Source of the DNA: Undibacterium sp. SXout11W
GTDB lineage: Bacteria; Pseudomonadota; Gammaproteobacteria; Burkholderiales; Burkholderiaceae_D
Assembly (NCBI RefSeq): GCF_049339905.1
Contig: NZ_JBMPPG010000008.1
DNA: 32,000 bases
Reading direction: 5' to 3' (one strand)
Under the pieces are notes generated by a model that made no database searches, was not told the origin of the DNA, and saw only the letters and a list, made by a program, of their open reading frames with translations. Shown piece after piece: positions 7,332 to 16,611 of this stretch (its first letter is position 1; every line of letters starts with the position of its first letter). A program made the position numbers and the translations under genes.

Positions 7332-8327
7332 TTATTTCATCTGATTCCCACGTTCAGTCGCGTTACTCACTTCATCCTTACGAAGCAAGGTACTCGTATT
7401 TTCAACGATGTTATTTTCGATCAACACGTTGTTTGAACTTAGCAGATTGATTGCCGCTTCAGCTTTATTCTTAGTGAAGCCTGACGATTGCACGATAAAG
7501 CGGTTATTGCGAATAATGGCGCCATCGGCGTCTCGTAGTTTTAAAGCTGCAGGGAGTGTCGCTTTGTCTTTGTCACTGAGTTTGATGATGAATGTATTAC
7601 CCTCGATAATAGGACGTGGGCCGTACAAATAAACTGCTACTTTGCCATCAACCTCAATCACGTTATTGCGAACAACGTTATCCGCACCAGACATAATAAT
7701 GCCGCGACCGCCGGATTGAATGTGGAGGTTTTCTGCAGTGTAGCGGGTTGATTTATAGCTGGAAACACTAAGATCGTCGAAGTGCTTGTCTTCGAGATTT
7801 TGTTTGAGCAGGTACTCAAAATTTAATATTGATGCAAGCGTGATACCTACGCCAAATGTGCCGGGTGTGATCACAGTTCCATTGTGAATTCGCAGATTTA
7901 TCGGCGTATTTCCAGCCATATACATGGTTGTAATGCCTACGGCATCGTCAAATGGAGCGCTTGAAATTAGGTGATTACGCAGGTCTAAATCAGCATTGTT
8001 AATTCTGTAAAAACTTATGACACCTTCGCCACCTGGATTGCCTTGATTACTGCGATCACTATCATGCGCATGATAACGTTGCCGCTGGATAAAATCGTGC
8101 ACCACACAATTTTTACCAGTAAAATCAACCGTGGTTATAATAGGGACGTAACCTCCATCGTATTTAACTGCTTTACATCCTTCAGGTAAAGTGATTTTAT
8201 CGCTTGCTGGATGCTGGCTTTCTGCCCATGCCTCATGAGTATAAGTTTGTTCAGATAAGCCGCTACAGCCGCTGATAGCTGCACATATAACAACCGCGAA
8301 TAGACTTATAGCTTTACTTCTTTGCAT
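7332..8327 (-). CDS. Exported right-handed beta-helix lipoprotein, partner of toxin 5 (candidate immunity protein)
   Basis: GGGAG lies 6 nt upstream of ATG 8325-8327. Lipoprotein signal MQRSKAISLFAVVICAAISG|C. C-terminal PbH1-type repeats (NVVRNNVIEV.., AIIRNNRFIV.., AAINLLSSNNVLIENNIVEN). Overlaps the toxin-5 3' end by 22 nt. Confidence 0.75.
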   Translation of the reverse strand: MQRSKAISLFAVVICAAISGCSGLSEQTYTHEAWAESQHPASDKITLPEGCKAVKYDGGYVPIITTVDFTGKNCVVHDFIQRQRYHAHDSDRSNQGNPGGEGVISFYRINNADLDLRNHLISSAPFDDAVGITTMYMAGNTPINLRIHNGTVITPGTFGVGITLASILNFEYLLKQNLEDKHFDDLSVSSYKSTRYTAENLHIQSGGRGIIMSGADNVVRNNVIEVDGKVAVYLYGPRPIIEGNTFIIKLSDKDKATLPAALKLRDADGAIIRNNRFIVQSSGFTKNKAEAAINLLSSNNVLIENNIVENTSTLLRKDEVSNATERGNQMK

Positions 8328-9277
8328 ACTGTGCTCCCTGGTAAACAAACGCCTGGATATTTGTCTTCTTGTCCTTTTAAATCACCAAGAAATTGGTCTC
8401 TATTTTTTTTAGCATCCTTTAAAATATAGGCGTCCTTCGCAATTGATGTATCCGTAGCGACTAACTCAATTTTTTCCACTCTTGTCCCGTCAGCATTTGT
8501 CAAATTAAGCTTCTTTTCTCCAATCCAGTTATTTAGTGTCTCTTGCAACAGCTTTTTCTTATACGGAGAATCTTCCCCATGCTCACGAATCGCATTAAAC
8601 GTTTTCAGAATGACGTCGATCTCATCGGGAGAAACTGCACTCGACGTACTGAAATCTTTTAATTTTCCCAAAATAGCTCTTTCAGCTGCGAAGCTTCTTT
8701 CTTCGCGCACATTCCATACTTTTGCAATGACGATGGGATCGGTGCCAGTGTAATTGGGGTCGCCGTTATAGGTGTAATCTGGTTGTTCGCCTGATAATCC
8801 ATGCCCAACACCTAGCCCCATCGTCAATGCATCAATTGGCCTGTTCATACCATCTCGATGACTAAACGTATCTGCATAAGAGTGTAAAAATTCACCCAGG
8901 AATTGATATTTAGCGCACGGTTGGCTAGGGTTACCAATTGACACTGCGTTCGAGAGATTTTTTAATTGTGGGCTGAGATTACTATTCACAATCCCGACAT
9001 CACTATTATCAAATTTCTTTATCGTATGCCCATTATCATCCGACAACGTAAAGTGATACCACTTCAATTGTTGTTGATTTTTGAGCGGAGACTCAAGAAG
9101 TTTTGCCATTGTCTCATCGTCTACCGGACGCGTAATCGGGTTATTGTCCACGTACTGCGAAGCCAAGGCTGTAATTTTTGCAGTGGTGTAATCCATGCCC
9201 GATGCCAAAGCAAGAAAGAAGACCATGTAGTAGTGCATATCTTCTTGATACAAGCCCGATGGATCAATCTTATTCAA
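8306..9277 (-). CDS. Orphan Rhs C-terminal toxin cassette 5 (H/D-motif family)
   Basis: Begins at (L/M)NKIDPSGLYQ. The frame upstream (to about 9345) still encodes GYRDGPDAYLYAQGDP of the rhs core. Motifs present: MHYYM, SQYVDNNP, YHF, GEFLHSYADTFSH, GVGHG, QPDYT. There is no canonical start, only the TTG that encodes Leu in the rhs context. Confidence 0.75.
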   Translation of the reverse strand: MNKIDPSGLYQEDMHYYMVFFLALASGMDYTTAKITALASQYVDNNPITRPVDDETMAKLLESPLKNQQQLKWYHFTLSDDNGHTIKKFDNSDVGIVNSNLSPQLKNLSNAVSIGNPSQPCAKYQFLGEFLHSYADTFSHRDGMNRPIDALTMGLGVGHGLSGEQPDYTYNGDPNYTGTDPIVIAKVWNVREERSFAAERAILGKLKDFSTSSAVSPDEIDVILKTFNAIREHGEDSPYKKKLLQETLNNWIGEKKLNLTNADGTRVEKIELVATDTSIAKDAYILKDAKKNRDQFLGDLKGQEDKYPGVCLPGSTVCKEVKL

Positions 9278-9389
9278 TGGATCGCCCTGTGCGTAGAGGT
9301 ATGCATCCGGGCCATCGCGGTAACCACTCTTCCAAGTCTGATCTAATGAACGCTAATTTTCCTCATTGATATCTACATGCGTCAGAAAA

Positions 9390-15622: not shown

Positions 15623-16029
15623 TGTACCCCAGGCTCACCAATCGCTAATGGCCGACGGAACATGGATCGGAACTCATTATTTTTTTCTATGCTGCTGCTT
15701 TTTTCATCCCAGTTTTTTACTAAAATATCGATGCCATAAATACGGTTATTTTCAATGACAACATCTTTGCTATCAATGAGTGAAATCGCTGCCTTTGGCG
15801 CGTCATCCCATTTGCTTTCAATAATGATGTCGTTGTTGCGAATGATCGTGCCGTCGGCCTGATGGAGTTTAATTGCTGCGGCGCTTTCTACTGCGGCCTT
15901 GCCTTTGAATATGATGATGTTGTTTTCTATTAATTGGTTTGGACCAAACAGGTAAATTGCCGCGTGACCGTTGGTGATTTCTATGGTGCTGTTGCGGATG
16001 ATGTTCGATGCGCCTTTCATGCCTATGCC
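15619..16029 (-). repeat. 411-bp direct repeat, copy 3 of 3 (most diverged)
   Basis: Same register and encoded peptide (LIENNIIIFKGKAAVESAAAIKLHQADGTIIRNNDIIIES..) with scattered synonymous and other differences. Confidence 0.8.
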
Positions 16030-16611
16030 AACTAATTTTGACTCTATTTTCATGCGCTCAACTAGATGCTCAGTTTTTTGATAGGCATCTGCGCTCTTTG
16101 GGAGGATTCCCAAAGTCTCACGTAAGTTATTTTTTTGACTTTCAAGTAGCTCTTCTTTAGTCACACCACCGACGGAGTAATAAAAATCCGTAAAGATGCT
16201 TCCATTAGGTCTGTTAAAGTCTATTCCTTGTCGAGTTCGACTCTTAAGTGTGCCATTGCGAATGGTGATGTTTTGATTGGCTATGGTGTCTTTCCAATAA
16301 CCTGAACTGACGCCACCCATACCCATATTATCGGCATATAAAGTAAAGCCATGTAAATCGATAAAAACATTTGATGCCTGGATTTTTAAGATTTCTGGTT
16401 CATGTGCAGTCTTTTCTCCTCCTTCCGCAAAAATATAAAATCGCGGAGCTGTAAAATCATGTGTTAAACAATATTGCCCTGCCTGAGTGATTTTCTGTGC
16501 AGAAATCATTGATTGCGAATTTTTCCATTTTTCAATAGGAATACATTCTTGGGCGAGAGTTGTATTCGCTAGACTCCATAACAATACAAATCGTCTGTGT
16601 GAATTTTTCAT
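15619..16611 (-). CDS. Exported right-handed beta-helix protein immediately after rhs (candidate cognate immunity protein)
   Basis: ATG 16609-16611 overlaps the rhs stop 16608-16610 (ATGA), with GGAG 8 nt upstream. The N-terminus MKNSHRRFVLLWSLANTTLA|QEC is a weak signal peptide. PbH1 repeats and the conserved C-terminal tail ..FRRPLAIGEPGVH. Confidence 0.75.
   Translation of the reverse strand: MKNSHRRFVLLWSLANTTLAQECIPIEKWKNSQSMISAQKITQAGQYCLTHDFTAPRFYIFAEGGEKTAHEPEILKIQASNVFIDLHGFTLYADNMGMGGVSSGYWKDTIANQNITIRNGTLKSRTRQGIDFNRPNGSIFTDFYYSVGGVTKEELLESQKNNLRETLGILPKSADAYQKTEHLVERMKIESKLVGIGMKGASNIIRNSTIEITNGHAAIYLFGPNQLIENNIIIFKGKAAVESAAAIKLHQADGTIIRNNDIIIESKWDDAPKAAISLIDSKDVVIENNRIYGIDILVKNWDEKSSSIEKNNEFRSMFRRPLAIGEPGVH

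Follow-up and report, generated by a model that had tools for sequence, protein, structure and literature searches.

In this study, we describe a toxin locus in a 32,000-nucleotide stretch of DNA from Undibacterium sp. SXout11W (contig NZ_JBMPPG010000008.1; hereafter the window) in which five paralogous genes encode right-handed beta-helix (BH) proteins with export signals, BH1 to BH5, each lying directly behind a DUF6765 toxin tip of the Rhs type. Judging from comparative sequence analysis, the BH proteins are likely to be exported cognate immunity proteins that bind the DUF6765 toxin directly. An initial annotation of this DNA had placed exported beta-helix proteins in the immunity position, and this assignment is supported by synteny, coupling of the two genes, co-divergence of their products, inheritance as a pair, the presence of toxin-free BH arrays, and the lack of a match to any catalytic family. 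Across genomes, the BH gene is found directly 3′ of the tip on the same strand, varies together with it, and also occurs in orphan and toxin-free copies. Among the roles initially considered for these proteins, that of a novel inhibitor scaffold is supported by the comparative tests, whereas those of a decoy substrate-binding protein and of a co-delivered accessory are less likely. We infer the binding and neutralization of the toxin by BH, as well as the activity of the toxin and its site of action.

Organization and conservation of the tip and BH cassettes

All genes of the array are encoded on the minus strand. In the window, a single full-length Rhs protein carries a DUF6765 tip at its C-terminus; five more DUF6765 tips, all of them orphans, come after it, and downstream of the Rhs gene the order is BH5, T4, BH4, T3, BH3, T2, BH2, T1, BH1, and T0, in strict alternation of tip and BH. 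The features are as follows.

16608..21527, minus strand: full-length Rhs protein of 1639 amino acids with Pfam matches to DUF6531, RHS_repeat, RHS, and DUF6765; its tip, T5, lies at about 16608-17576
15619..16611, minus strand: BH5, exported beta-helix partner of the main Rhs tip; Beta_helix E = 4.7e-9; ATGA overlap with the Rhs stop codon
14654..15622, minus strand: T4, orphan DUF6765 tip; Pfam DUF6765 E = 1.5e-23; AlphaFold2 model with a predicted local distance difference test score (pLDDT) of 90.1
13650..14657, minus strand: BH4, exported beta-helix partner of T4; Beta_helix match; ATGA overlap
12907..13653, minus strand: T3, orphan tip, 5′-truncated (family profile positions 104-313); tip profile match
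11897..12910, minus strand: BH3, exported beta-helix partner of T3; Beta_helix match; ATGA overlap
10430..11896, minus strand: T2, orphan module consisting of about 150 amino acids of the Rhs core end and a DUF6765 tip; tip profile match; nucleotide repeat
9390..10421, minus strand: BH2, exported beta-helix partner of T2; Beta_helix E = 3.2e-10
8306..9277, minus strand: T1, orphan DUF6765 tip; Pfam DUF6765 E = 3e-15
7332..8327, minus strand: BH1, partner of T1, predicted lipoprotein (AISG|C); Beta_helix match; lipobox
6272..7288, minus strand: T0, sixth tip, orphan, outside the range first annotated; Pfam DUF6765 E = 1.3e-18
5436..6275, minus strand: P279, non-beta-helix partner of T0, 279 amino acids, likely ATG at 6263; twin-arginine-like signal (RRQFI)

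The full-length protein belongs to the Rhs family by its domain order, which runs from an N-terminal signal-like hydrophobic segment through DUF6531, the RHS repeats, and the RHS core to the DUF6765 tip, and by the core boundary PLNKIDPTGL, of the PxxxxDPxGL type, that precedes the tip. The core fragment carried by T2 is 96% identical to the main rhs gene at the nucleotide level. All five BH paralogs first reported for this DNA are present, each behind a DUF6765 tip, with starts that correspond to the first ATG of the open reading frames 7332-8348, 9390-10442, 11897-12919, 13650-14666, and 15619-16620. The start codons of BH5, BH4, and BH3 overlap the TGA of the preceding tip in the sequence ATGA, with a GGAG about 9 nucleotides upstream; BH2 starts 8 nucleotides past the tip stop, and BH1 overlaps the end of its tip by 22 nucleotides. 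The ATGA overlaps together with the internal GGAG sites indicate that tip and BH are translationally coupled. The extent of the array was described only in part by the initial annotation, since the five tip-BH pairs are as reported but the sixth tip, T0, lies just outside, with P279, a protein without any Pfam match, as its partner.

The association between tip and BH is not confined to this strain. BH loci were gathered by a scan of one genome per GTDB species, in which 21 were found, and they were searched with purpose-built family hidden Markov models (HMMs) for BH and for the tip, with all counts made on non-redundant loci. BH was the next gene, 0-144 nucleotides away, for 25 of the 28 tips; the three exceptions were two tips with a P279 partner and one with a frameshifted BH. 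The named BH loci all belong to Burkholderiales (Undibacterium, Massilia, Noviherbaspirillum, Paraherbaspirillum, Collimonas, Methylophilaceae, and Delftia), and the same order of tip and then BH was seen in separately looked-up sequences from Massilia, Janthinobacterium, and Aquabacterium and from four metagenomes. It could be argued that the BH genes are unrelated passengers, or annotation artefacts of a repeated cassette, and it is true that much of the similarity within the window stems from recent cassette duplication. However, the pairing is kept where the tips are only 30-50% identical, in Oxalobacteraceae, Methylophilaceae, Comamonadaceae, and metagenomes, and this synteny across taxa effectively refutes the passenger explanation, which is also at odds with the intact reading frames and the confident structure model of BH; we regard it as extremely improbable.

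The pairing of a tip with P279 recurs in Undibacterium sp. Ji67W (L020, 4811-6486), and a distant P279 homolog follows a BH gene in Paraherbaspirillum (L018). Decaying cassettes were also seen: in L033 (4968-5935) the BH gene is split into pieces of 183 and 139 amino acids, and in L023 (6480-8477) tip and BH are both fragmented.

Co-divergence, exchange, and toxin-free copies

The pairwise identities of the tips and those of their BH partners are correlated (Mantel r = 0.87, p = 5e-4), a correlation that owes part of its strength to the shared ancestry of the cassettes. Divergence is faster in BH (mean identity 41%) than in the tip (51%), and within BH it is the N-terminal part that diverges fastest, with a mean identity of 32% compared with 56% in the C-terminal part. 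This agrees with the column entropy of the BH family, which is about 1.7-2.6 bits in the N-terminal part and 0.5-1.2 bits in most of the C-terminal part. The same division is seen among BH3, BH4, and BH5, whose C-terminal 131 residues are 91-95% identical while the N-terminal stretch of about 200 residues is only 43-45% identical.

A sliding-window comparison of the nucleotide sequences of cassettes 4 and 3 (11897-15622) gave 92-98% identity over the core of the tip and again over the final 400 nucleotides of BH, and only 40-60% across the last 270 or so nucleotides of the tip and the first 630 or so of BH. This mosaic indicates that the C-terminal subdomain of the tip and the N-terminal half of BH were exchanged as one block, and it places recombination boundaries inside both the tip gene and the BH gene. 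Exchange in one block is what would be expected if these two segments form the interface that determines specificity. The picture is not uniform: between cassettes 5 and 4 the N-terminal half of BH is again the most different region, but in the tip it is the middle that varies.

Moreover, the comparison with the sister strain SXout20W (L006) indicates that the tip-BH pair is a unit that moves between active and orphan sites. The T2-BH2 pair, an orphan in SXout11W, is carried there on a full-length Rhs (tip 99% and BH 100% identical) whose core is only 76% identical, and a pair similar to T5 and BH5 (91% and 79% identical, respectively) is found there as an orphan. From these sequences, tips appear to have been switched between the active and the orphan position in the two strains.

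There are more BH genes than tips, 37 to 28. Toxin-free tandem BH arrays are found in Massilia (L012, L017); Massilia sp. IC2-278 has a single tip with five or six BH genes and fragments behind it, a run of six BH genes or fragments is present in M. brevitalea, and in Delftia tsuruhatensis (L024) two BH genes follow one tip, so that one copy is extra and toxin-free. In an Oxalobacteraceae locus (L021, 7920-9823), a solitary BH gene, around which no Rhs is found within 8 kb, adjoins the gene for a secreted protein with ankyrin repeats and may represent an orphan immunity islet; one metagenomic protein (P0044) has BH fused to ankyrin repeats. An accumulation of toxin-free copies of this kind is characteristic of orphan immunity genes and would be hard to explain for a delivery factor.

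The same observations bear on the view that BH is not an antidote but a co-exported accessory of Rhs that would, for example, serve as an anchor at the surface, assist in delivery or adhesion, or act as a chaperone of the tip in the periplasm. This view would account for the co-translation of BH with the tip and for the export signals found on both BH and Rhs, and beta-helices are common in adhesins such as PfbA. However, a delivery factor would not be expected to form toxin-free arrays or to stand alone beside another putative immunity-type gene, nor to be retained, as BH3 is, beside a 5′-truncated tip that cannot be expressed (T3). In addition, with other DUF6765 tips this slot is taken by unrelated proteins, either small lipoproteins or integral membrane proteins, and we consider an accessory role quite unlikely. 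These partners belong to more distant DUF6765 tips and are not homologous to BH; as read from the sequences, they are small proteins with lipoprotein-like signals in L035 (2702-3100, 5054-5575) and multi-pass membrane proteins in L033 (3560-3943) and L036 (5051-5521). The occurrence of unrelated proteins in the partner slot fits immunity rather than a shared mechanical role.

Fold, export signals, and possible activity of the BH proteins

BH1 to BH5 are 330-350 amino acids long and share 34-64% identity over their full length. The right-handed beta-helix fold that had been ascribed to them is confirmed for all five by the Beta_helix family PF13229 (E = 3e-10 to 1e-7; 32-40 bits vs. a cut-off of 25.9), which is matched by 60/60 aligned members of the BH family. 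BH5 was modeled with AlphaFold2 from an alignment of 60 sequences (pLDDT 90.7; predicted template modeling score 0.88), and the confident model consists of short stacked strands throughout with one helical insertion at residues 143-172. A Foldseek search of the PDB with this model returned right-handed beta-helix proteins only, namely tailspikes, PL6 lyases, GH110, and PfbA, at a generic level of likeness (best E = 6.7e-4, template modeling score ≤ 0.45). The BH family is small and discrete, with 79 clusters and a weakest E-value of 1e-48.

The Sec or lipoprotein signals and the conserved cysteine pair near the mature N-terminus, both noted at the outset, were also recovered. The n-region and hydrophobic core of a signal peptide are visible in all five proteins, with AxA-type cleavage sites (..VAHA|GESC, ..TANA|QNNC, ..NSHA|EEC, ..TTLA|QEC) and, in BH1, the lipobox AISG|C; a hydrophobicity heuristic was passed by 55 of the 60 family members. 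Cys26 is present in 59/60 members and Cys51 in 60/60.

The initial annotation left room for a pectate-lyase-type enzyme, and this possibility received no support from family matches. None of the 60 BH members matches Pectate_lyase, Glyco_hydro_28, or Pectinesterase, a single one gives a weak match to Pect-lyase_RHGA_epim (E = 0.0019), and at the level of the 60-member family BH matches no catalytic beta-helix family in Pfam. When BH5, T4, and the two family profiles were searched against PDB sequences, no meaningful match was obtained. The identification of BH as a pectate lyase or glycosidase was therefore rejected for lack of a family match. A NosD-type copper maturation protein was likewise rejected. 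NosD and other PbH1/CASH proteins resemble BH in being periplasmic right-handed beta-helices with PbH1-type repeats and in giving weak HMM matches, but BH scores far below the cut-off of the NCBIfam model TIGR04247 (15-20 bits vs. 300), all five BH proteins fall below the 23.6-bit cut-off of the NosD family PF05048, no nos genes lie nearby, and the context here is a toxin tip. The conserved polar residues of BH lie mostly in the repeated xI[RE]NNxI motif (R209, E232, R261, E290, and the Asn stack), and this polar ladder is probably structural. A further patch, K251/H253/D256, is conserved in the constant C-terminal region.

It is in this context that indirect protection has to be weighed, in which BH would be a periplasmic glycan or lipid binder, or an enzyme, that shields or modifies the substrate of the toxin and does not bind the toxin itself. 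The PbH1 fold is typical of carbohydrate-binding and carbohydrate-active proteins, the Foldseek matches include tailspikes, PL6 lyases, and GH110, weak NosD-like matches were obtained for 50 of the 60 members, and the C-terminal half with its K251/H253/D256 patch is conserved. Yet under such a mechanism one gene copy would suffice, and neither cognate pairing and co-divergence nor the swapping of a hypervariable N-terminal half together with part of the toxin would be expected; moreover, no catalytic family is matched. Protection of this kind thus appears unlikely, and a cognate inhibitor that binds the toxin remains the reading we prefer.

The DUF6765 toxin tip, its probable site of action, and related systems

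The tips match DUF6765 (PF20551) with 53-84 bits against a gathering threshold of 26.6, and the six tips of the window share 38-80% identity. All 37 aligned homologs match this family as well. At E < 1e-30 the tip family numbers 216 representatives, and at E < 1e-3 it numbers 3694, which makes it much larger than the BH family. Among the 37 homologs, H22, D51, H84, H137, D141, H145, H170, and D178 do not vary in any sequence that has a residue in the column. These five His and three Asp residues include the motif HxxxDxxxH (H137-x3-D141-x3-H145). The confident AlphaFold2 model of T4 is mainly helical, and six of its eight best Foldseek matches in the PDB are clostridial alpha-toxins, which are zinc phospholipases C, at E-values of 0.7-3 that are not significant. 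Zn_dep_PLPC is the only recurrent Pfam family besides DUF6765, matched without significance by 4 of the 37 members (best E = 0.057), and there is no Pfam Het-C match among the tips.

Zhang et al. 2012 (PMC3482391) described Tox-HET-C as an all-alpha domain in which His and acidic residues are conserved, HxxxDxxxH among them. They predicted a relationship to zinc phospholipase C and S1-P1 nuclease, with a metal site of that kind, and gave no immunity protein. The tip resembles Tox-HET-C in being mainly helical with the same HxxxDxxxH, and differs from it in that it belongs to DUF6765, has no Pfam Het-C match, and has a partner family, which is defined here. Based on the invariant His/Asp set, the leanings of the Foldseek and Pfam searches, and the signature shared with Tox-HET-C, the tip is predicted from sequence and model to be a multi-metal hydrolase of the zinc phospholipase C/Het-C superfamily.

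The toxin probably acts in the cell envelope. All DUF6765 partner families examined, P279 with its Tat signal included, look exported, lipoprotein, or membrane-located, which points to toxin action in the periplasm or membrane and makes a phospholipase-like activity likelier than a nuclease; a nuclease toxin with a cytoplasmic immunity protein was rejected on the same grounds. In addition, the signal-like N-terminus of Rhs implies that the periplasm of the producer would be exposed to the toxin.

We propose that BH would be translated together with the tip, exported by Sec, and retained in periplasmic or lipid-anchored form, where a Cys26-Cys51 disulfide probably stabilizes it and where it would bind and block its own toxin variant. 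The conserved C-terminal rungs may serve as a constant scaffold, and the fast-evolving N-terminal half, with its helical insertion, may set specificity. The orphan tip-BH cassettes might then provide both a reservoir for tip switching by recombination and immunity against the toxins of relatives. It is possible, though we advance this only tentatively, that these proteins constitute a new class of exported immunity proteins in which a constant C-terminal scaffold bears an exchangeable N-terminal module that co-recombines with a subdomain of the toxin, directed against a zinc phospholipase C/Het-C-like envelope toxin on a Sec-exported Rhs protein that is independent of type VI secretion (the T6SS) and possibly delivered via a Tad-type pilus.

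Several points weigh against BH as a cognate inhibitor. A beta-helix of 330 amino acids is large and unusual for an immunity protein, the BH signal peptides were judged by heuristic alone and the hydrophobic core of BH5 is weak, and the K251/H253/D256 patch could be a functional site rather than a structural one. Part of the Mantel correlation comes from common cassette ancestry. On the side of the toxin, activity and compartment are inferred, and the links to zinc phospholipase C by Foldseek (E ≥ 0.7) and by Pfam (E ≥ 0.057) are each insignificant alone.

The general plan of an Rhs polymorphic toxin with a cognate downstream immunity gene and orphan cassettes is already known. As in other Rhs/YD-repeat loci, such as enterobacterial rhs and Bacillus WapA, a core that runs to PxxxxDPxGL is followed by a variable C-terminal toxin and a small gene directly downstream, then by orphan cassettes of tip and partner, one of which carries here a core fragment for recombination, and tips are switched between strains. 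Rhs immunity proteins are usually small and cytoplasmic, whereas the partner here is an exported right-handed beta-helix of about 330 amino acids; the present locus also differs in that the recombination boundary lies inside the partner gene and in that the Rhs protein has a signal-like N-terminus and no PAAR. The novelty lies in the pairing of tip and BH, in how the immunity protein is folded and how large it is, in its being exported, and in its apparently modular architecture.

Periplasmic Tli immunity proteins of the T6SS phospholipase effectors Tle1-5 were reportedly described by Russell and coworkers in 2013. Tli proteins provide exported or lipoprotein immunity against envelope-acting lipases, often with tandem extra immunity copies, and the Tle toxins are GxSxG lipases or phospholipase D enzymes. 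The BH fold is unrelated to Tli, the tip has a His/Asp metal site, and no link to a T6SS is visible here. Pentapeptide-repeat proteins such as McbG, AlbG, and Qnr form right-handed quadrilateral helices from 5-residue repeats and protect gyrase in the cytoplasm by DNA mimicry; they offer a parallel as beta-solenoids used for self-protection against a toxin, with no relationship to PbH1 in sequence or repeat. In searches of the literature on DUF6765/PF20551, beta-helix immunity proteins, Het-C T6SS effectors, and zinc phospholipase C in polymorphic toxins, no account of the tip-BH pair, of DUF6765 and its partners, or of a PbH1 beta-helix immunity protein was found; the only related item was the 2012 Tox-HET-C prediction. 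Where published work mentions Het-C domains on evolved VgrGs, it gives them just as "unknown function."

If BH is indeed the cognate inhibitor, a function could be given to two uncharacterized families at the same time: DUF6765 would be a metal-hydrolase toxin acting in the envelope, and a discrete Beta_helix clade would be its partner in immunity. The Het-C-like toxin domain would also have its first partner. Inhibition of a protein would be an addition to what PbH1 beta-helices are known to do, and BH would represent a natural binder of modular design, in which one half varies on a constant scaffold.

With regard to delivery, Pfam shows no PAAR domain in Rhs and the window contains no VgrG or T6SS genes, and a T6SS effector-immunity pair was rejected for these reasons. 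TadE-like and DUF192 genes, in some loci with T2SSF (TadB/C-type) genes as well, were seen directly upstream of the genes for Rhs-DUF6765 homologs. This holds for at least seven independent loci (L001/L012, L002, L003, L009/L010, L015, L018, and L027) and suggests that Rhs toxins with a Sec signal are linked to a Tad-type pilus, a linkage on which no paper was found. The Sec signal on Rhs and the recurrent Tad genes upstream of its homologs point to T6SS-independent Rhs delivery in Gram-negative bacteria. Directly upstream of Rhs in the window lies an open reading frame of 178 amino acids on the minus strand (21796-22332), without a Pfam or NCBIfam match and without a homolog in the related loci. 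The other neighbors of the array in the window encode PBP1A, two ABC exporters, and peptidases.

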